From: Lama guanicoe
Taxonomy: Eukaryota
Length of the DNA stretch: 64,000 bases
Assembly (NCBI GenBank): GCA_013239625.1
Contig: MU053758.1
Span: forward strand, 2,666,001-2,730,000
Direction: 5' to 3'
The position numbers and the translations under genes were made by a program. Under the pieces are notes generated by a model. It made no database searches. It was not told the DNA's origin and saw only the letters and a list, made by a program, of their open reading frames with translations. Numbering within the stretch: the first letter of the stretch is position 1; each line of letters begins with the position of its first letter. This document shows positions 1 through 17,057 of the stretch, piece by piece.

Positions 1-885
1 GATTGCAGGAGCCATTCCATCTCCCTTCTGACTGCTGCTGGGTTCAAAGTCAGGAATCTCCAAGATGATTTCTCTGCTCTGCCCCCCATCCATATACACA
101 CTCCTTCCCTCCCACAGCCCCTGAGTCTCCCCTGAGTCCTTGCCTGTCATTAAGGCACCCTAACATCCTTCTCTCCCATCCATGCCTGCCTCTCATCCAG
201 TTCCCCTAACAATGGCCTCCCACCTTTTACAGTACCACTCTTCTCTTTTTAAGGACTTTTGCATCTCATATCTCACATGAATCCTGTGAGGTAGGTGACG
301 CTGCTACAGCAAACCCCTTCTCATGTGTTTGGGTAACTACCTCAGAAAGCCCAGTGACTCACCAGCTACTCGGTGGTGAATCTGTGAGCAAAACCCAGGC
401 TTTGAGACTCCAGCCGGTGCTTTCCCCTCACAGCTCCACTCCCTGCCAGAGTTCTTGCCCCCTCTGCCAAGTTCCCCTGTCTTCACATCTCTCCCATCCC
501 CTCACCACCACCACCTGCCCCAAGCAGAAGTCACCGAGAGGAACAGCCAGAGTGAGCCAGGTGGAAGCCAAGTGGAACTTGAAGGAGAGGAGGGGAGGCA
601 GACGGCCTAGGGTCGGTCCCCCTGCCTCGGGGCTGAAATCTGGGAGATCAGGGTGTTCTATTCCTCTTTAGGGTCTGTTCCCAAAACCAGCTGGTGACCT
701 ATAGCCCCTCCACAGGTTTCTCCCAACCCCTTCAGTGTGGCTCCCTAGTGCCTGCACCTCCCACCACTCCTCCCCGCTCAGAGACCACCCTATGTAGGCC
801 TATGTGGTGAGGGGAGCCAGCCAGAACAGGCCAGGAGAAGTCAGGGAATCAGTGACAGCCAGTGCTCCATTTCTGACCCCCACAG

Positions 886-2331
886 ACATCCTCCCACTCA
901 AAGACCAGAATCTAAAAATGTCCCCCTCTGAAGGTGAGAGAAGCTAAAGGACTCTTCTCCCTCCCACCCCATAATGTGATGAGGACAGTCGGACAAAGTC
1001 TTAGAAGGTGAGGACACAAAGACACCACTCCCCCGCCTTCTCCAGCAAAGGAAAGAAACCAGCCCACTGAGGAACACAAGCCTGGAGCCCTTTCTCAAAA
1101 CCATGACAGGATGGTGGGTGGGATGCAGAGGGGTCTCTCTGACTTTGACATGACGTAGTGATGCTGGGGATCCCAGCCACAGGTTTGGTTTCTTGGGCTT
1201 TTAAGTACATCCTCCCCCTGCCCCCAGTCTCCACCACACTCTTCTAGGTGGGATGAGGCTGGACCCACCCAGGGCTGCACCACGGGGCAGGCGGACGCTT
1301 CTTCCCTAGGGGCTCTCTGCCCTCCATCTCCGTCTATCACAGTCACCCTCGGTCCCTTTCGCGTCTGCAACATCCTCAACCCCATTGAAAAATACTGTTA
1401 GGAGCTGAGTTCCCCTGTCACTCCACACCAGCCCCTGCCCTGATCCTCTTTCCCTGGAGAGGGGTACTTGAGGGAGGCACAGGACACCAAGGCCCAGAAG
1501 GAGGACTCTGTGCCTGGGGTGGGGGGCCCTCTGGGTGAAGTTATGTGGAGGCAGGAGGAGCAGGGTATGGTCCTCGTTACCACAGTCCTCTACGCAAAGC
1601 TCTGTCTGGGCCTGAGCCGGTCCGCTGGGAGCCCACAGGGTTTCGGGAGCTGCAGGCTGAGGTAGAGGAGGAGCTGCTGTAGCTTAAGGGCCTGACCCGG
1701 AACAGCGGACAGCGGGGCTGAGAGAAGGATTGGCACGACTGGGCCAGGCCCTGAGGCCCAGGAGCTGTGGGACGTAGCAGGGGCGGGGCTGCGGCGGAGT
1801 GGGCGGGACTGCAGGAGTCTTGGGGCGAGGTGATCGAGATTTCCGGAGCACGCTAGAGTGGTGACTGCAGTCCCGCGGGGCGAGAGGCGGGGCTTAAAAC
1901 GTCTAGGGGGAGGAGTCGGGGATGGGGCGGGGCTAAACTGGTGACGGCTAGACCTGCGCGCCGGAGGCGGGGCTACGAGCCGTAGGAGCCAGATGCAGGC
2001 TGAATGGGGCGTGACTGGCCTCCTATTCAGGGAGCTGTCATCCAGCATGTCCACTCGTCCACTCGAGGAAGGCCTCTTTACGCTAAGAGACACTGGGCTC
2101 CTGCCCTGAGGAGGGGATCTCCCTGTCTTTCTAACCGTTGAAGTATCTAGCTGATCACTTCCCATCTCTCTGTCAAGTAGATGGGAGCCTAGATTTTAAC
2201 AAGTCTTAGGTTCTGAGAGTTTCGGGGCGGGGGGCGCATGGCCTGAATCCTCGAATGACTGCAGGAGACTTCTAGCAAACTCAGTTCCATACTGACTGGG
2301 CACATCTTCTACCTGCTGGAGGCTCTGGGTG
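886..2331 (+). pseudogene. Decayed gasdermin-family paralogue (unprocessed pseudogene; remnants of linker and C-terminal-domain exons)
   Basis: 886-933: 48-nt phase 1-1 exon (cccccacag|...|gtgaga), DILPLKDQNLKMSPSEG, same length and phase as GSDMA exon 6. 1641-1773: FRELQAEVEEELL*LKGLT/EQRTAGLREGLARLGQ aligns with GSDMA exon 9 (stop 1680-1682, 1-nt frameshift near 1699). 2177-2331: VDGSLD...ILE*LQETSSKLSSILTGHIFYLLEALG ending G|gtgagg, matching GSDMA exon 10 LEGALD...GAILYFLGALT G|gtgagt. Confidence 0.72.
1782..2016. promoter_or_regulatory. CpG-rich cluster of GC boxes (SP/KLF-type)
   Basis: GGCGGGGCT at 1782, 1886, 1926 and 1966; variants at 1802, 1824 and 2008; locally high CpG density. 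Confidence 0.5.
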
Positions 2332-2984
2332 GTGAGGATCTAGAATGGAGATGGAGTCAGTCACTGATGTGACTGACAGGCCTACTGAGTTGGGCCCAAG
2401 GTACCAAGAGGGACCTAAAACATAATTTATGAGTCCCAGTGCAAAATGAAAATTTCAGGGCGCATTCAGTTCCTCAGCACAACTTTGATTTGAGGACGTG
2501 TCACAAGACACCGAACAGTGTCTGCTCAGCTAGGATTTTGGAGATGTCTTGGGCTCCAAAGCTGATTTGGGAATTGGGGAAGAAAACTCGAAATTTTTTA
2601 GGAGATAATAAAAGAGTCTGGGGGTTTTACTGTGTTCAGAAAAGAATAGTTTATTTATGGAAGTATAGCCTGCAGTCTGCAGTCTGCATTCCAAAACTTC
2701 CAACCTCCCATGAGAGATATAAAATGCATCGACTTTGGGGCACATTCTTCCTCCTTCTCCACCATTCCAGTCTGTCTCTTTCCTCTTTGGCTCCTTTCTG
2801 AGGAGAAAGTCAATAATAATAAAGAAGAAAATGGGTAAAGAAGTAATTAATGTCCTGTCCCAGTGTCTGGGTCTGACTTCAGGGTCCGCAGTGCACACTG
2901 TAGGTCAAGTTACCAGAGAACAGGTGGCTGGGGCTTCCTCCACTAAGTCTATTCCCTTACCTGATCCGCATCTTCTAGCAATCA

Positions 2985-3026
2985 CACACAAACCACAGCT
3001 TGGTGCACACAAACCACAGCTTGGTG
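2985..3026. repeat. Perfect 21-bp tandem duplication
   Basis: cacacaaaccacagcttggtg x2 (2985-3005, 3006-3026). Confidence 0.9.
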
Positions 3027-3074
3027 CACACACACATCAAGGGGTGATTATCGCCCATTAACTCCCTCGATCGA

Positions 3075-3087
3075 CCACTAGAGGGAG
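3075..3087 (+). promoter_or_regulatory. CTCF core motif (forward)
   Basis: CCACTAGAGGGAG matches the CCASYAGRKGGCR consensus except at its end. Confidence 0.5.
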
Positions 3088-4579
3088 ATAGAGAGCAAAG
3101 CCTGCTGCCTGCATCAGCACCACGCACCACTTAGCTTGTTTCAATAAATCACTATTAATTGACCAAAAAAGTTCTTACATATTACTCCAACTTAAATTTC
3201 TTTCAGCACAGTTTGAATTATGTCCCAGATTCCCCTGAACATAAACAAAGACTCTGAGGAAAAGGAGCCTGTAGACCCTAAAGGGATTCTGCGGCCTTAC
3301 CCTAAGGCCTTTACTGGAGTTTTCCTTGAGGAGCTTGTGGTGAATGGGAGGAGGGGAGGTGACAAAAAGACAGGATATCCTAGATAGGTAGGAGGAACAG
3401 CCCAAGAACAAGCCTGACATGGATGTTTTTATTTCAAAAGCACAAGACCTTCAACCTGGCTGGTCTCATAAGCCCTTATTTCTTCTCTCTGCCTTGAACT
3501 CACAAAGGAACCTGCTTAGAACACCATTAGGCAGTTTGCGGGATGGTGCAATGGGGCAGAAGTAGAGTGGGGACAGGACAAGGAGAAGGAGGATAGGCCT
3601 GGTGGAGTTCAGAATGAATGAAGGAAGGCAAGAGGAATGAAAAGAGCAAGACTTCTGGGTCAGAGGAGACAAAACTGGCTAGATAGACTTTTTTGGGTCC
3701 TGAGAACAGATACAGGTGTGACTTCTTGAAACCACTCTTCTCCAGATCTTTGGAGGATAAGGTAAGAAGAAGACAGACACTCAGAAGAAACCCCCAAAAG
3801 TCTAGCTGAGGCAATGATAGGCTGGTCAGAGGGTGAGGAGTGGGGCTGCCTTCTCAGGAGCTGATTAAGCCCAGGACCACATGATGGTTTGCTGTGGGGT
3901 CAGATCAAAGTGCCAAATAAGAGATACAGAGAGGTAGAGACAGAAGTCCAGGAAGAACCAGGAAAATAAGAGATGAAAAAGATATTACACAGACAACACC
4001 TTTCTGCATACATGCACACATGTGACAGGAACCGCATGACTGATGACAGCCTCCCCACATGCCCAAGCTCCCATTTCTGTTTCTCCTAAAGAGGAGGGAT
4101 GTTTGCTTAAGATAATGATTAGAGCTGTCGAAGGAGGAGGTATTAGGTATCTGCACAAGATGAGCGCGGGTTCAATGGGAAGAGAGGTAAACAAAAAGAC
4201 AAGGGGCAGGGACCAGAGACCCAGCAGGGGCAAGGTCTTGTTTTGTTTCAGGACACAGAAGAGAGAGATTTGGGAGCAGCTGTCATACCGAATGAGACTT
4301 TGCGGACAGAGGTGGAAGAGTTAAATTTTTAGGAGTTTTGCTGAATATGATGTGATCTAATCTCCCCTAGTCACCACCAGCCCCTCCAGAAAACCTCCAG
4401 TAAAGACCTAACTTACTCTTCATGGGTTTTAAGGCAATATTTCATCTTCAGTAGGTGATACTGAGGAGAGCCTCAAAGGGAGAGCATGAAGGCTCAGTGG
4501 TATTCAGGTTATACATGCACTCATGCGTAGACACATATCCCAACACCATAGGAGCCTTGCTTGTAAATGTCTTGATTTG

Positions 4580-5037
4580 ACCGTAAAAAAGAATGAAATA
4601 ATGCCACCTGCAGCAACATGGATGGACCTAGAGATGATCATATTAAGTGAAGTAAGTCAGATAGAGACAAATATGATATCACTTATATGTGGAATCTAAA
4701 AAAATGATACAAATTTTATTTAAAAACCAGAAATAGATGCACAGACATAGATAACAAACTATGGTTACCAAAGGGGAAAGGAGGTGGGGAAATAAACTAG
4801 GAGTTTGGGATTAACAGGTATAAACAACTATATATAAAATAGATAAACAACAAGGACCTACTGTACAGCACAGGGAACTATATTCAATTTCTTGTAATCA
4901 GCTACAATGGAAAGGAATCTGAAAAAATGTATATATATATGCATATGTATTTTTATAACTGAATTGCTTTGCTGTACACCTCAAACTAACACCAAATCAA
5001 CTACACTTAATTTTTAAGAAAAGACAGTTTTTAAAAA
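4580..5037 (+). mobile_element. 5'-truncated LINE-1 3' end with target-site duplication
   Basis: Typical L1 3' sequence (gaatgaaataatgcca...catggatggacctagagatgatcatattaagtgaagtaagtcag; gctgtacacctcaaactaacac); TSD gtcttgatttg at 4569-4579 and 5038-5048. Confidence 0.85.
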
Positions 5038-5563
5038 GTCTTGATTTGTCATCTAAAGACTTACCATGTGTGTAAAGTCCCCTTTAAAATTCCTTCCAGG
5101 CAGGGATTTGAGATAAGAGTAAGACCTGAGTGACCGATGGTAAGGTGTCTGAATTCCCACCGGAGATGGGTGTTTGGAGATTTTCCACTAACTCCGCTGT
5201 GCTTCTGCCTGTGCACGTTTGTGTGTGTCTGTACAATACTCCTTTAGGGGCAGAGATGCTGAACAGGAAATAAGAGAAAACCATTTGGTCTATCTCCATC
5301 TCTGCCTACACAGGCATATGCTTGTAGCTGTGCCATAGATACGTACCTGGAGCTGAAACAGATAGAATGAGGCAGTGATGTGCGGGCTGACAAGCAAAAA
5401 GATGGAGGACAACCTTTCAGTTGCTCTTTCTGCTGGAATCTGAAGACACACAGGATTTCTTATCACCTTATCACACCCACAAAGCCTCGTCATGAATCCT
5501 AGCTGCTTCCCGATGGCCATGATGGAACAGAGATGCCTTCCCTCATCACACCCATGCATGTGA

Positions 5564-5587
5564 ACACACACACACACACACACACAC
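5564..5587. repeat. (CA)n microsatellite
   Basis: Uninterrupted AC dinucleotide run. Confidence 0.9.
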
Positions 5588-5779
5588 CCGAAGTCCCACT
5601 GCCTCTCTCTGCAGCCCCCTCCAAGGTGCCTTCCTTCCTCCGCTCTCAGCCCATCAAGCCAACCTTCCACTGGCATCTCTTCCTCGGCCTTGGCTCCCCC
5701 ACCCATGCCGGCACCTGCCTGGCAGCACCTCTCCCATCCTCTCAGCCCTCGGGAGGCCGGGGCACAGGGCCTGGGGCAG

Positions 5780-6007
5780 GGCACACGTGGAACAGGTTAA
5801 TGCTGTTCTCCCGGAAGTGGAGCAGGTGAGGGGTGGGGTCACTGGAGCAGGCGGAGTCCCTGGAAGCCAACATCCTTGCCTCCACGGAGGCATAAAGCAG
5901 CAGCCTGTCCTGGTGAAGGACAGTCATTCTCTCAGCCCGCAGACCAAGAGAGGCCCAGACCCTCACCCCAGACCCAGCTGCTGGTCAGGACCTAGCACCG
6001 CTCCCTG
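5780..6007 (+). promoter_or_regulatory. GSDMA: Probable GSDMA promoter and non-coding exon 1
   Basis: E-box 5784-5789, GRHL-like AACAGGTT 5791-5798, ETS CCGGAAGT 5811-5818, CACCC box near 5830, TATA-like CATAAA 5891-5896, strong donor ctg|gtaaga after 6007; the next acceptor (7485) is 5 nt before the ATG. Confidence 0.55.
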
Positions 6008-7490
6008 GTAAGAACTAGAGGACAGCAGGGGAGGAGAGGGTGTTCTAGGGACAGACGAGATCATGGATGGGACAAGAAGGGCCTAGGAGTCCCCTAGAGC
6101 CCCGTGGGGTAGGAATCTTGATCAGCCTTGGGGAGAGAAGGGGGAGGTGGCCCTGTGAGCACTTATCTGATGAGGAGGAGACAGCAGTCACCCAAGCCCT
6201 TCCCAGGTTGGCCAGGAGGTGGTCCTGTCCCATCTGGGCCCTCCCAGGAATGAGAGGTGAAAAAAGCACATTGGAGCTAGTGTGGTTGACAGAGTGGCCC
6301 CAGCCCCTGTGTGTGTGCACCCTGCTTCCCCAACTCTGTGAGGTGCCAACTGGGATGTGAGGCGGTTCCAGGCTGGCTGGTGTGTCCTCTTCCACCCTCG
6401 GGGATAACCCAGCTGTGCCAGCTGGCTGCCCAGCCAGAGCATCCGGACTTGAACCTCAAAGACAGAGACCAGAGATCATGAACTTCAGGCTCTTGTAGGC
6501 CCCATGTTCTCCAGGGCCCTCTCACCCCAGCTCAAGTCTCCCAGGGCCGCGTTCATGCATTCACTTGTCCATCCATTCCACACACGTTGCCAAGCTCCAA
6601 GTCTGCACCAGGCACGGTGCTTGGAGCTGAGGCCACCAGGATGACTAAGACCTACTTCCTGCCATCTGGGAGGTCACGGTCGAGTAGGCGAGAGAGTCAG
6701 GTGAACAGATCACAACAACAGAAGGCAGCAGGTGTCTCAGAAGGCATTTTGGGGTGGAGTCACCAGCTGCCTGAAGGGGAGAGAGAAGGGGGTCACAGAG
6801 GAGTGACCGGAAGTGAGTCTTAAAGGACACATAGGGATTCCTTAGATTGGGAGGGAGGTATTACCAGCAGAGGGGCGAGGGCAAAGAGCATCAAAATGCC
6901 TGGATCTGCTGAGTGGTACCTGGAGGGAGGTGGGAGAAAGTAGAACCTACACCCATGAGCCAGGAGAAGGGCACAAGGGAGGTAAGGGGACAGGGAAGTG
7001 ACCCCCACCCAAAGAAAAGGCAACTGGGTGAACAGTGCTGCCTCCCGGGCCCTCCCCCTTGGCACCAGGGGTGGCTGCCTCCCTCCCCCAGCGTCCCCAG
7101 GTCCTGGCTGTCACAGTTCTCTGGGGGAGACAAGGTGGGCATGTCTGTGTGAGAGGAGCTTTACTTCCACAGCTGATGAAATGCTCCAGCAGGGCTCCAG
7201 GTCCGTGAAGTGAACAGGGAGTAAGAAAGGAGCCCTTGACAAGGAGAAGGGAGGGCTGGCTCCCCAAGCCAGCCGAGCCACCCCCCAGGCGACTTGTTTT
7301 CAGCTCTCAAGGCTTCATTTCCTCATGGTAGAGTGAGGACTCCTCTGGTTCCTTTCAGCTCTGACATTCAGAGAATCCAGGCATCTTTAAGGGCGCCCCA
7401 GCCCCAGAAACCCCCCATCTCTCTCCACAGGGGACGTCCTGGTCTCCCAACTTGTCACTTTCCGGTCTCCCTCCCCCTCCTGCAGAGACA

Positions 7491-8278
7491 ATGACCATGT
7501 TTGAAAATGTCACCCGGGCTCTGGTCCGCCAGCTGAACCCCCGAGGGGACCTGACACCCCTGGACAGCCTCATAGACTTCAAGCGCTTCCACCCCTTCTG
7601 CCTGGTGCTGAGGAAGAGGAAGAGCACGCTCTTCTGGGGAGCCCGGTACGTCCACACTGACTACACCCTCCTGGATGTGCTTGAACCCGGCAGCTCGCCC
7701 TCAGGTCAGCCTTGTGCGTGGGGTTGGGGACTGAGGGAGGGGCCCCCGAAGCTCCCTCTGCCCTGGTGGTGGCAGCATGGATAGGAGTCTCTAGCCCAAA
7801 GACCTCGCAGGAGGCGGGGACCACGGATGCCTCTCAGCCCAGCCCCCTTCGTCTTCTCCCTCCTGCAGACCCAACAGACTCTGGAAACTTTGGCTTTAAG
7901 AATATGCTGGATGCCCGAGTGGAGGGAGAGGTGGATGTGCCAAAGACAGTCAAGGTGAAGGGGACAGCCAATCTGTCCCAGAACAGCACCCTGGAGGTCC
8001 AGACGCTCAGTGTGGCTCCTACGGCTCTGGAGAGTTTGCACCAGGAGAGGTGAGACTGGGCAGGGCTGGAGGGCTGCTGGGATGGGGGAGCGGTGCCTGG
8101 AAAGGGTGCTTTGGGCCCTGAGTTAAAGGGCAGGGCCCTCACACTGACCTTCACCTATGTGGTCACCCCAGGGGCGCTCTTGAAAATGGCCTTCTGGCCT
8201 ATAGGTCATTTAGGCCATTTCTTAACCACTCCCCACCCCTTCCCGTCCTTCCACCACCTCCAGTACCCCTCCCCACCA

Positions 8279-8314
<36 letters not shown>

Positions 8315-11300
8315 ATGAGTGTGTCCCCATTAATGTGTTGTGTGACCTTGGCAAAGTCACTTCTCTTGGGACTTGAGTTTTCTTCCCTGAAAAGTCACAG
8401 TGTTAGATGAAAATTTCTAGGGTTCCTTCTGACCCTAAGACTATGAAATACACTAAAAAGCGAAGAGGCCTTAACTGTTCCCTACTGTGGCTTGAACACA
8501 GCATTCTGCTCCCATAAATGAAGCTCTCCCCCCTGCCCAGCCCCGTGCCCACACCAGGCTGGAAATACTGCCCCTGCAGCATAAGGAGTGTGGCAGATGC
8601 CATGTCTCTTCTGGGCTCCTCAGATGTTTTGCTTGACAAGGGAACCGACTTTTAAGTAGTTAAGTAGTGGTTGAAAGGAGGTGAGGATCAGGGAGGCAGG
8701 AAGGAAGGGTGGGGTGCTTGGGAAGCCATCCAGGAAACATTTATATACCTTGCTGAGCACAAAGCACCCCACTGGTGCTGGGCTGCACTAGAACATCTTT
8801 GTCTGAGAATCTGGTGGTCTCGGAGTGTGGGAAAAAATGTACAACAGTAACTAATCCAGGGCAAGAAGAGGTCAGTGTCCTAGGAAGGCTTTGCCTGAGT
8901 TTTGTGGCAGGTCAGAGGGACTTCTGGCTGGGGAAATGAGGGCACACTTCACAGAGCAGGCAGCCCATGAACTGGGCCTTGAAATGAGTAGAAATTGGAC
9001 AAGCAAGACTGGGAGAATGGCATTACAGAAGCACACAGGTGAGAAATCTCAAAACCTATAGGGACTGTGAATAGCCGGTTTGACAGGAGCAGAAGAGGGA
9101 TGAGTGGAACAAAGGAGGGCCCGGGTCATGGGGACACAGGTGTCTGGTCAAGAAGATGGAACTATGCTGTAGGCACCAGGGAGACCCTGACGATGCTCTG
9201 ATATGTGTCTTGACTAATTTGACCAGACGAAGGAAGTGAGTCAGCGGATGAGGGACAGGGGTTTGGAGGAAGCAGGCAGACCAGGCAAGACTCTGTTCCA
9301 CTGCCCATCAGAGATGCAAAGTGAGCTGGGAAGAGCAGACAGAATGAAGGGGGAGGAACAGACGTGAGGCCTCTGGGGTGGCAAAATGGATGGACCTGGC
9401 AGCCAATCGCAGGGCTAGGGAGAGGGTTTTGTCAAAGCAACTCTGATGGAGATCTGATGCACAGCATGACCGTGTTAATAATTCTATATTATATAACCGG
9501 AAATTTGCTAACAGAGTAGATTTCGGGGAGGGGGAAGGTATAGCTCAGTGGTAGAGTGTGTGCTTAGTTAGCATACACGCGGTCCTGGGTTCAATCCCCA
9601 GTACTTCTATTTAAAAATAAATAAATAAATAAATCTAATTTCCCTTCCTGAAAAAAAAATTTTTTTTAAAAAGAGAGTCGATTTCAGATGAAGTGGTAAC
9701 TCCGTGAGGAGATGGGTATGTTAATTGGCTTGACTGCAGTAATCACTTCCCCATGTATATGTATATCAAAATATCACCTTGTACACCTTAAATATATACA
9801 ATTTTTATTTAAATAAATTAAATACATAAGAATCTTTTAAATGACTCTGGGATTTGACCCAAGTGGTGACCTTCATAGGAACGGGAAGACAGAATTTAGA
9901 ACCGAGTTTGGAGAGAAAGAGTGAAGCCACACATGTGGGTGGTGGTCAGCAATTTAAAGATTAAAACTGCAGGAAGGAGGTCAGGGGAGCTGTTGGAAGG
10001 AACTCAGACAGAAAACCAAGTATGGAATCTCAGAGAAGATAAAATTTTAGGGAACAAAAGAAAATGAAAGACCTAGAAAACTGAGATGCAGACAGAATGG
10101 ATAGGATTTAGAGCCAGAAAGACAGGAGCAGAACCTGGGAGGCAAACTGGTCAGAAGCCTGGCGAAAACAGCATTGCACAGAGGGTTTGCACAGACAGGT
10201 CCAAAGTCTTGCAGAGTTCAGGAAGGTCTCTGAGTTCAGTGGGGGGGGGGGGTCATTGTGATTTCAGTTGAGGAGTGGAAACAGAAGCCAACTTGTCAAG
10301 AATTTACAGGTGGGCAGTGAGGAAGTAAAGACCCTGGGTATGGACATATCTTTTGAAATACTTGCCACTGAAGTGAAGGAAAGAAACAGAATGGTAATTG
10401 GAGGGGGTAGCAAGACCAAAGGACGGGTTTATGTGTGTAAGCAAGTGGAGAGGAGGAACTGGTGTTAATCATAAGGGAATAGATAAGAGGTGGAGAGGAA
10501 GGACCGAGGAGAGATGAACAGGGAGGAGAGGGAGGAGAATGCAAGGGAGAAAGAAGCCACCACGAGGCCCTGTTCTGGGCCAGGTGCTATGCCTGAGAAA
10601 AATTCTTTTACGTTTGTTTTTTTAAATTTTTCCCCCTAAGGGAGGCACTGGGGATTGAACCCAGGATCTTGTGCACACCAAGTGCGAGCTCTACCACTGA
10701 GCTATACCCCCCTACCTCTTATTTTACTTGTTTGTTGTTGTTTGTTGTCGTTTTTACATGTCCATTTATTAAACAAGAACTCCTCCATGACAATTTAATA
10801 CAATATTTACTAGCATTTAATTTTGAGAAAAGTATTTCCCTCTACATACAAAAATACAGATTTGAACACTATAAAAACAATCAGGACAAGTACCATGAAA
10901 AATTAGTCCCTTAAAAGAAATAAAGGGGAGAAACTGAGGGCAGCATGAGGTTTTGTCTGCTGTCAGGAACAAACCAACAGGAGCAAAGGCTTTGGGTCCC
11001 CAAACCACTCCAAATGGATAGAGCCATACCTGAGAGCCAGTCCGAGCAGGATGGTACCCACCCCAGGGCATCTGTGTCCTCGGTTTCAGAAGCCAGGGTG
11101 GGAGCTCTGACCGACCAACAGTCTGTCTCTCAACAACCCTGGAGGTAGGTGTCATTACCCTCATTTTATAGATGAGGCAACCCAGACTCAGAGAAGCCGC
11201 CCTGACAGTAAGCGGGAGATCTGGGTTTCAACCTGAGTCTTACTCCAGAGTCTGCACGCTTTCCCTGACACCACCAGGCCTCGCTCCTGCGAATGACAGA

Positions 11301-14300
11301 AGGGAAGAGAAGGACAGGGCCCAGATGGGGAGAAGCTCTGGACGGTCTCCTGATGTTTCTCCTGCCACAGGAAGCTGATGGTAGACCACCCGTTCCTGAA
11401 GGAGATGCGAAGTGAAAGAATGAACCTGTATGTGGTGATGGAGGTGGTGGAGACTGTGCAGGAGGTCACCCTGGAGAGAGCCAGCAAGGCCGATGGCTGC
11501 TTCTCCCTCCCAATATTCGCCCCGTTGGGACTACAGGTTTGGTTCACACGCGCACACACACTTACATTCAGCGTACCCTCAGTGGCTGCATTGACTTTGC
11601 CCAATTAGTCCCTCTGCCCCAATACTGAAAAGGACCCACTCCTTCCCCCTGCTCTTCAACATCCAGACCCCAGTTGGCCAGAAACAAATCCTCTCTCTGG
11701 TCAGTGGTGTCCAGTAGGGCACAGTCCTATGCCAGGTGCCACGGGGAGCTATCAGGGAAGAGGAAACTCATAGTCGTGGATTCTCCCCTAGGGTGCTCCC
11801 GATCTACAGCAGAGACATCCTTTCTGTCAGAAGGTTCTCAGTCTCATGGGGGAGACACAGAGGTTAAAGACTAGAGAACACAGGCTTGGAAAACTCAGTG
11901 TAAATAAGTAATGCTCTACATGTTTGTATCTGTTTTGTATAAATGTTCAAAGGATGAGTGGGAACTAAGAGTAGGGATTAGTCATGGAAGGCTTCCTGGA
12001 GGAGGTGAGCATGGGACAGATGGCAAAGAGGAAGAAGGAACCAGGGCCTGGGTGGAAGCTCTAAAGTGGGACAGGGATACACAGGTAGGTGATGGAACAG
12101 CTCTGCCTAGTTCCTTCCTGTATCGGAACCAGGAAGTAAGAAACAGATTGTTAGAGGCATGATCAGCAGAAATGAGAAGAAGAAAGCTGCCACAGAAGCT
12201 CACTGTTCCAGGTGGAAAGGCAATCAGGGATACCACTGGTGTTCCCCACTTCTTATCTCCCCAAGGGCTCTGAGGCCTCACCCTCCACTTGCCCTGCCAA
12301 CACACACCCAATGTCTCATACTGAGCCTCTCTGTACATTCACAAATCCTTATGTCTAATTCTAGGGATCCATAAACCACAAGGAGGCTGTAACCATCCCC
12401 AAGGGCTGCATCCTGGCATTTCGAGTGAGACAGCTGATGGTCAAAGGCAAAGATGAGTGGGGTGAGCAGACACCGATGGTCCCCTGCTCAAGATGAGAAT
12501 TACCTGCACCACAGCTAAGGCATCCTGGTCCCCTCTTGTGGCAATGTCAGGGACTGAGTAAAGGAGTATGCTGTGGTCCAATTTCCAGGCACAGAGGGAC
12601 AGGGGCTGCTCTGGAGAGGGAGGGAGGAACTCCTGGTTCTGAGCATCTCAGGGTGCTAGGCACTGTGTTCACTGAGGAGAGGGAAGACAGAGATGAACAG
12701 GCACAGCCAATGCTCTCAAGAAGTCTGTGGCCAGTGGAGGAAACTGACACAGACACCAGTACTAGAACGCAAGGTAGAAAACAGTGTTATCATAGGAGAG
12801 GATTTACAGAAGAAGAAAAGATTACATCCAGCGACAGAGGTAGAGCTGGGGACCAGCTGAGGCATTTGAGGGCAGGTTCTCAGCCCTTAGCAGAGCCCAT
12901 GGGCTTGAGACTAGAGAAGGAAAGGTGGGGCAACTGTTGAGAGTCCTCCTGCTCTCCCCTCTCTTGCTTCTTTCAGATATTCCGTGTATCTACAATGATG
13001 ACATGCAAACCTTCCCTCTTGGAGGTAAGTGGAATTGCTTCCTGGCCCCCCACCTTTTCTGCCCAACCCCTGATGCTATGGGCTGAAATCCCTCCTGCTC
13101 TCATGGGGCACACCAGAATCCCCCAAGGAGCCCCCTGCTTTTGTTTCCCAAGTCTCTCAAAGCATCTATCCTCAACTTTAGGAAAGACAGATAGAAGCAT
13201 ATAAATATCCCCAAGAGAGACAGAAACAGAAAGACAGAGACCAGAAGGCACCATCAGAAGCAGATATAAGACTTGAAGGCAGTGTCTGTTCCCAAATTGC
13301 GGGGGCAGATGCGCTAACATCATCTCTTTGTGTTTTTATAATGATCACTGATAAAGCTGCCTTGACAACTGCTCTAGATTAAAAAGGCACAAAGACGTTT
13401 TATGCTGACATATGTACATTGTTTCTGTCTTCAGAAAAGCCAGAAGAGGAGAAGTTCACCCGTAAGTGTTTCCTGTCATTTCGCCGCAACTTCCTTCACA
13501 GAATTCTAAAACTCCAGTCTTTTTCTTCCATTCTCTCTGGGACTGATGAGGAACGTGGCAGGGCAAGTTTCAACAAACTATTGTCTCTGAAATGTGGCAG
13601 GAATTCTAATGTCTCAGGAAAAAAACAGGGGAAGGGGGAAGTCCTTGGACAACATGCCCAGGCGGTCTCATGCCTCCGACCACTGTCCTCAAGGGCCTTA
13701 GTAATTAATACCTGTTACATCACGTCTGCAACTCAGCCACCCATGGCCCGGGGCCGGAGCCGCTGAGTCAACAGTGATGCCAAATCAATCCAGGTGCCCT
13801 GGTTAACAATGCATTAGCTTCTCAGCTGTCTCATTCCTGCCTCTCACGAATGGAGCAACCGTATCCTTAAAATGGCTGGGATATCCCAGCAGACGGGATG
13901 TATTTCCTAACCTCCATTAATGTCTCATCCCCTGGGTATGGCTACTGTTTTGGAGGATTGCATCCTAATTGGTTTTTTTTTTTTCCCTCAGTTATCCAGG
14001 CATCTGATGTTGGTAAGGAACTTTGTGTTTCTCCCTAGACTTTGGCAGGAAGGCAGTGGAAGTAGCTTTGGAGTGAAGGGAGGGGAAGACAGGTGCTAAG
14101 TCCTAGACGCTGGCAGCTGGAGCCACTTCCAGGAAGCCACTCTCTCTAAAGCAGGCTAGACGTATTCTTAGGATGAGGCCCCTAGAGGGGCAGGTGGAGG
14201 TTCAAGCTATCCCTGATCCACCCACATCCCTGGATTGAGACCCACTGCTCTTTCCTGTCCCAGTTTTTGCTCAGTCATCACAATCACTTCTTTGTCAATA

Positions 14301-17057
14301 ACTTTAGGGAAGGGAAATAGAAATTCCTTCTCAACTCTTAGCTGGAGTCTTAGAGAAAGGGAGGTCAATTATCTACTGATCTGGGATGGATGGAGCCTAG
14401 GGTCTCAGGGAGAATGAACTGCTGGCTTAGATGATGTGGGTCCTGGCCCAGCCCCTCGCCCCCACATCCCCCACCACCCAAAGCCTCAAGTCAAGGCTGG
14501 TGGATAACTACATGAACTGCATTCTTTGGTCCAGCAAAAAGAGAGACCAGGCTCCAGCCGAGAGCAGAGCCCAGGGGCCTGAGCAGGGTTGGATGAAGGA
14601 GACCCTCAGGGAGAGGGCTGCCTGAACTGATGGGGATGGTGCCACATCTACTGTCCCCACAGGGGAGGCACTCAAGGACTTCAGAACACTAAAAGAAGAG
14701 GTTCAAAGAAAGACCCATGAAGTGGAGAAGCTGAGCCCAGTGGGGAAGAGCTCCCTGCTCTGCTCACTCAGCAAACTCCTAGGGAAGAAAAAGGAGCTGG
14801 AAGACCTGGAGTTCACAGTGAGGACCCAGCGGAAGGGGGGAGGTGCAGGAGAAGGAAGGCTTTTGGTGGAGGTGCATGTGGGTGGCACAGCTGGTAGGGG
14901 ATCTGACAGATTTGGCAGAAGGTGGTTAGTGGCCAGGAGCACTGATAGCGGATGCCTTCCCCAAGGCTGGCCAAACGCCCCCCAGGCTGCCAGACCACCT
15001 GGGACCTGGGTCCCTCTGAAGAAGGGACACAGTGCCGATTCCATGCTCCTTTCCAGAGTCCAAGGCTCAGGGACCAAGGAAGGAACCCAAGAGTCCAATA
15101 CTTTGGGAGATTTGATACCTTGAAAAAGAAACAAGGAAATGGAGACAATTAACACATCTCAAGGCATTGTTAGTTGCCAGGCACTGTGCCCTTTACCTTT
15201 ATCTTAAATAGTCACCCGCCTTTCCCTACAGCTGGAAGGGGCTCTAGACAGAGGACATGAAGTGACCCTGGAGGCACTCCCAAAAGATGTCCTACTATCA
15301 AAGGAGGCTACAGGTGCCATCCTCTATTTCCTTGGAGCCCTAACAGGTGAGTGGGGAGTGAGGTCTTCATTTACATACCTTTTCAGCGGGAGGAATGAGT
15401 CACTAAATGAATTCCTGAATGAATGAATGAATGAATGAGTAAATGAATAAATGCCAGGCAAATTATACCACAGTTAATTAAATTATATCTACACTTTTAA
15501 AAATTGGTTTCATTCCTAAGGGTCCATTTGGTCACCTTAGCCTACTCTTGCTAACAGAGATTGGCAAATCACCCTAGTTTTATCAGCCATATATTTAAAA
15601 CTTCTGAATATAGTTAAGCTCATCACTTTTATATTGATATCTGTTAGCTTTAATTTGAGGGTAACATCTTCTCATCTGACCCCTGAATTCTCTTCTTCCC
15701 TCTGCAAGAAACACTCCCCAACTTCTAAAAATTCTCTGGTCCTTCAGGTGTAAACTGAGGTGTTTGTTCCCTAAGAAGCTGGCCCTCAAACCACCAAGAC
15801 CAAAGTTAGACCCCTCAGCTATGGCTCCCGTAACAGCCTGTATTGTAATTACTCGTTACACTCTGTCTTCTCCGCTAGACTGCAAGCTCGAGTGAAGAGA
15901 GGACCACTTTTACCCAACAGCCCCAGCAAAGGTGCCTGGCATAGAGCAAGCATTCAACCATGGATGCTGTATGAATCAATTAATCCCGAAGGACACCCAT
16001 TCATTAATTAATTAATGCTGGAAGGGCACTCATTTGGAGCCTGTAGTCCCCTTTGCACCAACACCACACATCTCTCTCTCTGCTTTTTCCTCCAGAGCTA
16101 AGTGAAGCCCAACAGAAGTTGCTGGCAATATCCATGGAGAAGAAGATCCTACCCGTGCAACTAAAGCTGGTGAGAAAACACCACCAGGTGTGACAGAGAG
16201 TTTGGGTGGGAGTCAGCTAGAAACAGAGGAAAGATCCAGTTTAACTTCATGACAGAACCTTCCTAGAGGGCCTCTGTCTTATCCTAGGAGCTCCTGCTCC
16301 CTTCCCTTTTCTTTCCATGTTTCTTCCTGTTTGCTAGCTCACAACTAGAAGTCAAGAATGCATTTCTGAGCAATTTCCTGGCTTTTCCCACCTGATTTTG
16401 GGAGAAGGGACAGAAAACTCTGGTGATGTGAACAAATCTTAATGTCTCTGAGTCAGCCTCAATTGATTCCTCTATAAAATGGAGCTAAAAATAAACATGC
16501 TGGGGGGAGGGTATAGTTCAAGTGGTAGAGCACATGCTTAGCATGCACAAGGTCCTGGGCTCAATCCCCAGCATCTCCTCTAAAAATAAATAAATAAAAA
16601 ATCTAATAACCCCTCCCCCAACAAACAAACAACGTGCTGCTGCCCACTGTATGAAAAGGTTATGAAAAAAGCTCAGACAGAGGTGTAATGAAATGTAAGA
16701 AAAGGGGTTACAAGTAAAGAAAGGTAGTGCTCTTTGTGTTTTTTATGAGTTAAGAGAAAGGAGTAGAGGTTGCCAGCTCTTTCTTTCTTTTCATGTTACT
16801 TCGGTTTCCTCCAGGTGGAGAGCACAATGGAACAGAATTTCCTACTGGATAATGAAGGTGTTTTCCCCCTGCAGTCTGAGTTGCTTTCCTCCCTTGGGGA
16901 AGAGGAACTGACCCTCACAGAGGCCCTAGTAGGGCTGAGTGGCCTGGAAGTGCAGAGATCGGGCCCCCTCTACATGTGGGACCCAGACACCCTCCCCCAC
17001 CTCTGTGCCCTTTACGCTGGTCTCACCTTCCTGCAGCTACTGACCAAGGCCTCCTAA
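7491..17057 (+). CDS. GSDMA: Gasdermin-A, 446 aa, 11 coding exons
   Basis: join(7491-7704,7869-8049,11371-11536,12365-12461,12977-13024,13435-13461,13992-14012,14663-14817,15232-15346,16096-16169,16815-17057) = 1341 nt, all GT-AG, phases consistent; MTMFENVTRALVRQLNPRGDLTPLDSLIDFKRF...LCALYAGLTFLQLLTKAS*. Confidence 0.97.
8281..8310. repeat. (CA)15 microsatellite
   Basis: Perfect AC run in GSDMA intron 3. Confidence 0.9.
9445..9815 (+). mobile_element. Old LINE-1 3' fragment interrupted by a SINE
   Basis: gagatctgatgcacagcatgac...aaatttgctaacagagtagattt / ...atatcaaaatatcaccttgtacaccttaaatatatacaattttt. Confidence 0.7.
9525..9673 (+). mobile_element. tRNA-derived SINE (camelid Vic-1-like) with TSD
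   Basis: A box tagctcagtgg, B box ggttcaatccc, (aaat)n tail; TSD agagtagatttc 9513-9524 / agagtcgatttc 9674-9685. Confidence 0.85.
10612..10712 (-). mobile_element. tRNA-derived SINE (Vic-1-like)
   Basis: gggattgaacccagg...ctctaccactgagctatacccc is the reverse complement of the SINE head. Confidence 0.8.
15410..15452. repeat. (GAAT)n simple repeat
   Basis: gaatgaatgaatgaatgaatgagt run. Confidence 0.75.
16502..16630 (+). mobile_element. tRNA-derived SINE (Vic-1-like)
   Basis: ggggggagggtatagttcaagtggtagagcacatgcttagcatgcacaaggtcctgggctcaatcccc plus A-rich tail. Confidence 0.85.

Follow-up and report, generated by a model that had tools for sequence, protein, structure and literature searches.

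An eroded gasdermin gene between LRRC3C and GSDMA in a camelid-like genome, with relatives in marsupials and afrotherians

A broken gasdermin gene upstream of GSDMA

The window analysed here is a stretch of 64,000 nucleotides (nt) of Lama guanicoe DNA (G000:C1600:2666001-2730000, + strand), to which 30 kb of upstream contig was added, and it carries a gene row of the mammalian 17q21 type. The row consists, in order, of GSDMB (-), ORMDL3 (-), an LRRC3C-like gene (+), a broken gasdermin gene (+), GSDMA (+), PSMD3 (+), CSF3 (+) and MED24 (-). The subject of this paper is the broken gene, referred to below as the relic, which extends over about 5.4 kb (from position 2663162 of contig C1600 to base 2612 of the window) between LRRC3C and GSDMA and is read on the strand of GSDMA. 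We consider it very probable that this is a unitary pseudogene, what is left after the erosion of a separate gasdermin gene, which we call GAL, after the database label 'gasdermin-A-like'. The relic is a pseudogene of the gasdermin family and not a working member of it, since no open reading frame covers both gasdermin domains.

The preserved pieces correspond to exons 2, 3, 4, 6, 9 and 10 and to the last coding exon, and they stand in protein order on the + strand; exon numbers follow the GSDMA numbering of an initial annotation of this DNA. Positions are those of the window unless the contig is named.

C1600:2663162-2663343, + strand: exon 2 (46-55% identity, E = 2e-8), with a 9-codon deletion and a frameshift
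ending 454 bases before the window, + strand: exon 3 (59% identity over 22 residues), with a GTGAGC donor
104 bases before the window (C1600:2665896) to base 48, + strand: exon 4 (41-46% identity, E = 4e-5)
886..933, + strand: exon 6, 48 nt, phase 1-1, stop-free, with AG and GT intact; peptide (D)ILPLKDQNLKMSPSE
1585..1768 (both boundaries approximate), + strand: exon 9, end of the linker and start of the C-terminal domain, found by tblastn and by a hidden Markov model (HMM) of GAL proteins
2178..2331, + strand: exon 10, with AG acceptor and phase-1 GT donor, found by tblastn and the HMM
2458..2608 (acceptor approximate), + strand: last coding exon, as in the marsupial long form, about 126 bases 3' of exon 10, found by tblastn
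2607..2612, + strand: AATAAA hexamer read from the sequence, overlapping the stop of the last exon and probably a polyadenylation-type signal of the relic

The initial annotation had reported three of these segments (exons 6, 9 and 10) as remains of a dead second gasdermin gene, and all three are present in the sequence at the coordinates, on the strand and in the order it gave, including the intact 48-nt exon at 886-933. It had also advised a search of the sequence upstream of the window, and this search recovered exons 2, 3 and 4 and lengthened the known relic from 1.4 kb to about 5.4 kb.

At the position aligned to the initiator methionine, exon 2 has ACA. Another frame of exon 3 reads LLVNISITVSS, which resembles marsupial IPVNISVSAGG by eye (an unscored likeness). 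Exon 4 is composed of three frame segments, and its 3' end, SHSISLLTAAGFK at bases 10-48, is followed by a GT donor at 49-50, the bases right after the exon being GTCAGGAA. Exon 6 is preceded by CCCCCACAG and followed by GTGAGA. The frame of exon 9 that runs through 1641 reads GFRELQAEVEEELL, then a stop (TAG at 1680-1682) and LKGLT, and after a 1-nt frameshift near 1697-1700 it continues as EQRTAGLREGLARLGQA; its homology begins at 1596, earlier than the 1641 given initially. Exon 10 opens with (V)DGSLD after TGTCAAG and closes with YLLEALG G/GTGAGG; it carries a TAG at 2207-2209, a frameshift near 2225-2230 and two TGA codons at 2244-2246 and 2256-2258, and in the alignment it contains a 10-residue insertion specific to GAL. 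The last exon has an in-frame TGA at 2486-2488 and an in-frame TAG at 2531-2533, and ends with SKFFRR before TAA at 2606-2608.

Splice signals survive at the exon-4 donor and on both sides of exons 6 and 10, and the exon layout and phases match those of gasdermin genes, exon 6 being 48 nt of phase 1-1 and exon 10 having a phase-1 donor. Exons 5, 11 and 12 were searched for in two ways: tblastn listed none of them at E <= 20, and in ungapped scans with exon-sized GAL peptides the best + strand positions below 7000 ranked only 4th to 59th among about 128,000 and were not collinear. At least six in-frame stops, at least five frameshifts, the ACA in place of the start codon and the failure to find these three exons bear out the initial view that the gene is dead.

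A small stretch in the relic's intron 9 also stands out. Bases 1601-2000 are CpG-rich (GC 0.68, CpG observed/expected 0.52-0.96), and five same-strand GC boxes of the GGGGCGGGG type stand at 1780, 1822, 1884, 1924 and 1964, with a spacing of 40-62 bases; this stretch could be a decayed tandem repeat of about 40 bp or a promoter-like element.

Homology to gasdermin-A-like proteins

When camel GSDMA was compared by HMMER with 1.84 billion representatives, 305 proteins were obtained at E <= 0.001, and the best 150 of these 305 plus camel GSDMA itself, 151 queries in all, were run against bases 1-7000 of the window. The standout was the Elephantulus protein P0128 (cluster label 'gasdermin-A-like [Elephantulus edwardii]', XP_006889541): at 2229-2327 it matched along 33 residues with 55% identity (E = 7e-5), and at 1596-1697 along 34 residues with 59%. 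Further relatives were collected by word-indexed searches with P0127 and P0128, which gave 8 and 13 clusters, respectively, all of them from marsupials (Monodelphis, Gracilinanus, Petaurus, Antechinus) or afrotherians (Elephantulus, Dugong, Trichechus inunguis). No boreoeutherian or xenarthran GAL was present among the roughly 8,000 candidates sharing most words in each search, which does not by itself prove absence. The GAL proteins named below, besides P0128, include the following.

P0127: Monodelphis GAL, cluster members XP_007482353/54
P0287: Petaurus GAL
P0279: Gracilinanus GAL
P0289: Dugong GAL, labelled 'LOW QUALITY PROTEIN'
P0291: Trichechus inunguis GAL, labelled 'LOW QUALITY PROTEIN'

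The flag on the two sirenian models we take to mean, from NCBI practice, that the annotator repaired the frame. Models with open frames exist in Monodelphis, Gracilinanus, Petaurus, Antechinus and Elephantulus, in agreement with the initial suggestion that the gene might survive in other mammals, and Monodelphis has several GAL genes (P0127, P0288, P0131 and P0162). P0127, P0128, P0287, P0289 and P0291 each contain both Pfam domains of the family, PF04598 (Gasdermin) and PF17708 (Gasdermin_C). Because both domains are present, an intact GAL protein, as in marsupials, is predicted to be an autoinhibited pore-former, in keeping with what is established for the family: the C-terminal domain would keep the N-terminal pore-forming domain inactive as long as the linker is uncut, and cleavage should release it.

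The marsupial long forms P0127, P0287 and P0279 have, after the gasdermin C-domain, a C-terminal extension of about 200 residues (approximately 458-669), in which Pfam finds no domain; an Atlas search with residues 458-667 of P0127 gave no usable feature match, and structural template modelling (TM) values were only 0.25-0.39. The first part of this tail (KAEWDLE) is shared by the sirenian models in the alignment. The afrotherian models P0128, P0289 and P0291 are without about 36 residues of the N-domain (the 5' part of exon 3) and without exon 6, and their Pfam N-domain match is split into two stretches. Since the relic keeps exon 6 and a trace of the VNISITVSS type, these gaps belong to the afrotherian genes or to their annotation. 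In Elephantulus, a GSDMB-like model whose accession number is two away from that of GAL shares its scaffold, and the Dugong GAL gene is on the same contig as Dugong GSDMA; from such shared scaffolds and neighbouring accession numbers, the intact GAL genes may be syntenic with the relic.

When nine GAL proteins were used as tblastn queries, bases 1596-1700 matched P0291, P0128 and P0289 with 59-66% identity (E = 1e-6 to 4e-6), and bases 2229-2327 matched with 48-55% identity (P0128 55%, E = 8e-5). In another frame, bases 2213-2290 matched the frame-shifted manatee model P0291 with 58% identity (E = 0.002), so that the likeness resides in the DNA and not in one reading frame only. The last exon was recognized through the marsupial tails: bases 2474-2599 align with residues 628-669 of Petaurus P0287 (40% over 42 residues, 30.4 bits, E = 9e-4), and the match of this exon to P0279 reaches 58% over 26 residues. 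An HMM built from eight GAL proteins found two collinear domains in one frame, at 1596-1706 (independent E-value 1.4e-7) and in exon 10 (independent E-value 2.8e-5).

We assessed these scores against 200 dinucleotide-preserving shuffles of bases 1-7000. GAL proteins score 33-39 bits on the segments, and the 200 shuffles do not exceed 28.9. For P0128, the three best high-scoring segment pairs (HSPs) have 38.1, 35.0 and 33.1 bits at 1596-1697, 5702-5797 and 2229-2327, and the shuffle maximum is 26.9, none of the 200 reaching any of the three; the P0287 match in the last exon is likewise reached in 0/200 (maximum 28.5). The initial annotation had named the lack of any gasdermin match beyond shuffled controls as the outcome that would speak against it, and the opposite was found. 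Short exons were scanned ungapped in all six frames of the window. The exon-4 end at 10-48 ranks first among 127,924 positions for all four GAL queries (scores 31-41), above GSDMA's own exon 4, and among 127,906 positions the Petaurus query puts the exon-6 peptide at 885-932 first (score 31); the Monodelphis query gives this peptide 23 by hand count, below its own top of 31. Exon 6 carries conviction only when its position and splice sites are considered as well.

The segments are at noise level against GSDMA (E = 47 or absent), Pfam is blank on the single pieces and bases 1601-2000 are GC-rich (0.68), all of which would be expected if GC-rich non-coding DNA translated by coincidence into gasdermin-like peptides. 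We give such a coincidence practically no credence and regard it as already refuted, because no shuffle reaches the three best P0128 HSPs and because one strand carries at least seven pieces that follow the order of the protein; two short exons, moreover, each come first among about 128,000 positions (for exon 6 this holds only with the Petaurus query), and the splice signals stand in the expected phases. The relic segments are homologous to GAL proteins far beyond chance.

The case was first made in a different way, namely from the similarity of the three segments to the exons of the window's own GSDMA, and as proof this similarity did not hold up, being at chance level. With the camel GSDMA model P0001 as query against the whole window, tblastn gave only bases 2280-2327 at E = 47 and nothing at 1641 among the 60 HSPs listed, and an ungapped scan with GSDMA exon 6 did not single out position 885. 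For exon 9, the stop and the 1-nt shift stand as described, and the codon-for-codon match to GSDMA exon 9 is not significant; for exon 10, the DGSLD start and the phase-1 donor G/GTGAGG stand, and the claimed likeness to GSDMA amounts only to the E = 47 match. With the GSDMA comparison at chance level and Pfam blank on the single pieces, the finding would have fallen if judged by these two results. Over the in-window pieces the relic shares 25% identity with GSDMA (30/121 columns), versus 44-53% with GAL proteins. In blastn, bases 1-6000 have only (AC)n microsatellite similarity to the rest of the window; such microsatellites lie at 5564-5587 and 8280-8312.

Phylogenetic position, decay and surroundings

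A careful IQ-TREE analysis was made with 36 rows (GSDMA 9, GAL 8, GSDMB 5, GSDMC 4, GSDMD 5, sauropsid and caecilian GSDMA 4, and the relic), hand-picked from 311 proteins with fragments and most GSDMA, GSDMC and GSDMD representatives left out, the relic row having X at every break. In this tree, which the initial annotation had proposed to build from the reconstructed peptide, the relic falls inside GAL with support of 100/100 and inside its placental subclade with 99/98, its highest identity being to Elephantulus (58% over 229 columns). A quick tree of the in-window pieces alone also places it in GAL, at 100 in the Shimodaira-Hasegawa-like approximate likelihood ratio test. GAL is divided into marsupials and placentals, which is the split expected of orthologues; the GSDMA clade, including platypus, is supported at 100/100 with GAL outside it, and GSDMB forms a separate clade at 100/99. 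The 10-residue insertion in exon 10 occurs in all GAL proteins and in the relic and is absent from GSDMA in the alignment.

A tandem duplicate of GSDMA that arose in this lineage, like mouse Gsdma2/3, and decayed later would also lie directly upstream of GSDMA on the same strand with exons of equal sizes and phases, and tandem duplication of GSDMA has a precedent in mouse according to the accessible text of PMC8742441. This origin is highly improbable for the relic, which has 25% identity to GSDMA versus 44-53% to GAL, carries the GAL-specific exon-10 insertion and tail exon, and shares with the GSDMA gene no DNA similarity other than (AC)n. When the relic and GSDMA were forced into one group, the rival grouping already named before any tree was built, the approximately unbiased (AU) test rejected it (log-likelihood difference 30.4, p-AU 0.0004). 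The initial annotation had argued against a recent duplicate of the Gsdma1-3 type and for an ancient paralogue, and both views agree with the identities and the AU result on the one hand and, on the other, with a relic nested in a clade that is split into marsupials and placentals and stands outside mammalian GSDMA.

Two other assignments were tried and rejected. A place of the relic within crown mammalian GSDMA is contradicted by the same AU result, the 25% identity and the lack of DNA similarity beyond (AC)n. Identity of the relic and GAL with GSDMB is ruled out by the separate GSDMB models in Elephantulus and Monodelphis and by this genome's own GSDMB exon, which lies 26 kb upstream on the - strand.

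Two further matches lie downstream of the AATAAA hexamer of the relic.

3422..3499: weak exon-10-like match to marsupial GAL, reading DVFISKAQD, a four-column gap and then LQPGWSHKPLFLLSAL (24 bits, E = 0.04-0.09; reached in 8/200 shuffles; no GT donor follows)
5702..5797, + strand: match to the final 32 residues of the GAL model from Elephantulus (56%, 35.0 bits, E = 2e-5; 0/200 shuffles)

The second match is located 3 kb past the hexamer. A TATA-like CATAAAG at 5890 (identified by eye) follows it after about 100-200 bases, and a likely exon 1 of GSDMA is also just downstream. The match may mark where the GAL tail starts, or it may be a conserved 5'-flank or promoter of GSDMA that is read as coding in the Elephantulus model; either reading suggests that the Elephantulus GAL gene abuts the GSDMA flank. 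Exon-12-like matches at 5618-5705 have E = 2-5, contradict each other between two frames and were not counted.

These matches raise the question of whether two tandem GAL relics are present, copy 1 comprising exons 2-10 and the end of the tail, and copy 2 an exon-10-like piece at 3422-3499 and an exon-12/tail start at 5618-5797. The several GAL genes of Monodelphis, the weak match at 3422-3499 and the significant one at 5702-5797 downstream of the hexamer are what such an arrangement would predict. We think two copies unlikely: the 3422-3499 score is reached by shuffled sequence and no donor follows, the matches at 5618-5705 are at chance level with two frames in conflict, and 5702-5797 is equally readable as the GSDMA flank.

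Several points weigh against a single eroded GAL gene at this place. The claim is based on seven of about 11 coding exons, without exons 5, 11 and 12. The match at 5702-5797 is downstream of the supposed last exon, and if it represents the exon-12/tail junction, the order is disturbed or two relic copies exist; the one at 3422-3499 could be chance or an older second copy, which leaves two copies possible. Exon 6 alone is marginal in tblastn (P0287, 43% over 30 residues, E = 1.4). A weaker objection is that Pfam finds no family at E <= 10 in four single relic pieces, which are short and broken, although controls on GSDMA exons 9, 10 and 12 do match Gasdermin_C. The tree is unrooted within mammals, and the order of GAL, GSDMA, GSDMB, platypus GSDMD and GSDMC/D is an open fork. 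Synteny outside this genome, finally, is judged indirectly, from scaffold sharing and accession proximity.

As to the history of the remnant of GAL, a GAL gene would have stood between LRRC3C and GSDMA in the therian ancestor, and constraint on it was probably lost at an early stage of the lineage that led to this camelid-like genome, with neutral decay thereafter. Exons 11 and 12 and most of the tail were presumably removed by deletion, because the interval between exon 10 and the last exon measures only about 126 bases, and the relic presumably makes no protein now. Its end branch in the tree has 0.63 changes per column versus 0.10 for Elephantulus, the sirenians having approximately 0.06-0.08 on a shared 0.23. 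Contigs of close relatives have an additional A after 895, inside exon 6 (runs X15 and X16), and have lost 4 bases at 1601, within exon 9 (runs X15-X17); this pattern of indels fits neutral drift.

One observation concerns a camel gene model. The dromedary 'Gasdermin-A' model P0001 (468 aa) begins with MVTEAVKMLKEATLE, which is the exon-4 piece of the relic; in the present genome this piece, YMVTEAVKMPKEATLE, is located at L009:9945-9989, 55 to 11 bases before the window, and is followed by GAG/GTGGGA. The dromedary model borrows a relic exon as its N-terminus, either as a prediction artefact or as part of a real chimeric transcript. Sequence runs from RNA libraries (X15-X18) gave on bases 1-4400 only unspliced contigs of depth 2-13 and 90-99% likeness, from libraries that may contain DNA, and no splice joint was found in these contigs, whose cover of the region is partial.

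Dead as a protein gene, the relic might still have been reused, giving rise to a non-coding RNA or supplying GSDMA with alternative upstream exons or with a promoter. The dromedary model, in which the exon-4 piece is joined to the first coding exon of GSDMA, the CpG-rich stretch with its five same-strand GC boxes at 1780-1972 and the RNA-library contigs over parts of bases 1-4400 would all be compatible with reuse. On the other hand, these contigs are unspliced and shallow, without a joint, and may derive from DNA, the camel model may be an artefact of homology-driven prediction, and the accumulation of indels in relic exons between close relatives argues against constraint; we judge reuse to be unlikely.

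The genes surrounding the relic were identified as follows, the position of the GSDMA start codon being taken from the open reading frames.

7491..17054, + strand: GSDMA coding exons, intact and directly downstream of the relic (tblastn with P0001, exon by exon, 83-100% identity)
about 22.5-31.4 kb, + strand: PSMD3 (Pfam on open frames), the block from PSMD3 to MED24 occupying 22477-55188
about 38.8-39.6 kb, + strand: CSF3 (Pfam on open frames)
about 42.4-55.2 kb, - strand: MED24 (Pfam on open frames)
6408 to 5590 bases before the window, + strand: LRRC3C-like open frame of 273 residues with leucine-rich repeats (LRR)
upstream 30 kb, - strand: ORMDL3 exons
26 kb upstream, beyond ORMDL3 and LRRC3C, - strand: first coding exon of GSDMB

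The best database match of the window's GSDMA is Camelus dromedarius GSDMA (95% identity over the last exon), and Pfam finds Gasdermin_C in its exons 9, 10 and 12. The 273-residue frame is probably LRRC3C, judging from its LRR domains and its position. PSMD3, CSF3 and MED24 follow GSDMA in the same order in the human 17q21 region.

Comparison with known gasdermin genes

Taking the relic and its relatives together, we regard it as likely that GAL represents a seventh lineage of mammalian gasdermins, in addition to GSDMA-E and PJVK. This lineage, unnamed in the field, would have been a neighbour of GSDMA in the therian ancestor at the latest and would be marked by a unique C-terminal tail of about 200 residues; it would have been kept and multiplied in marsupials and eroded stepwise in placentals, where an elephant shrew has an open frame, sirenians have frame-corrected models and the present genome has a 5-kb relic. 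The relic itself is of an ordinary kind, a unitary pseudogene, and apparently it points to a gasdermin lineage that is unnamed, ancient and alive in marsupials.

If so, mammals would once have had one more gasdermin gene, a putative pore-former, than textbooks list, and a paralogue predating the marsupial-placental split would alter the reconstruction of how mammalian gasdermins arose from GSDMA. GAL adds a candidate pore-former in marsupials, and if the marsupial proteins do form pores, they would constitute a pyroptosis effector without a human or mouse counterpart. The relic would then be a marker for dating the loss of GAL across placental orders. It also explains odd gene models, such as the dromedary GSDMA with an N-terminus from a relic exon, and it offers a lesson for annotation, namely that a unitary pseudogene missed by Pfam and by queries with the neighbouring gene can be recovered when surviving orthologues are used as queries.

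In the accessible text of the two sources consulted, mammalian gasdermins are given as GSDMA, B, C, D, E and PJVK (PMC10948149, PMC8742441), and GSDMA is described as flanked by LRRC3C and PSMD3, with the mouse triplication as the sole exception (PMC8742441, PMC10948149). We found no description of a GAL paralogue in the accessible literature on gasdermin evolution; reviews in subscription journals are outside this scope, and a prior description is possible. In supplement file 3 of Billman et al., a taxon list of 1,226 rows, neither Monodelphis domestica nor Elephantulus occurs, and both accession prefixes are likewise absent (12/51 supplementary files were covered); seven supplementary files of PMC8742441 have no match to GAL.

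Of the known genes, GAL proteins are most directly comparable with the relic: they share 44-58% identity with it over 82-229 columns, fall in the same clade (100/100), and have the same 10-residue exon-10 insertion and a last exon ending in SKFF. They differ in being open or frame-corrected models, whereas the relic has stops, frameshifts and no start codon and is without exons 5, 11 and 12. GSDMA (PF04598 and PF17708) is of the same family, adjacent and on the same strand, and has the same 48-nt phase 1-1 exon 6 and phase-1 exon-10 donor; unlike the relic, it forms a separate clade (100/100), with 25% identity over 121 columns, and lacks the exon-10 insertion and the C-terminal tail. Mouse Gsdma, Gsdma2 and Gsdma3 resemble the relic locus in that more than one gasdermin gene is found between Lrrc3c and Psmd3, but these copies are, in the accessible text of PMC8742441, a recent and mouse-specific triplication of GSDMA, whereas the relic lineage predates the marsupial-placental split. 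The GSDMB remnants of rabbit and the loss of GSDMB and GSDMC in rodents, as given in the accessible part of Billman et al. (2024, PMC10948149), are likewise cases of lineage-specific decay of a paralogue at a 17q21-type locus; GSDMB, however, is not the same paralogue and lies beyond ORMDL3 and LRRC3C, and a GSDMB exon is present in the genome described here.

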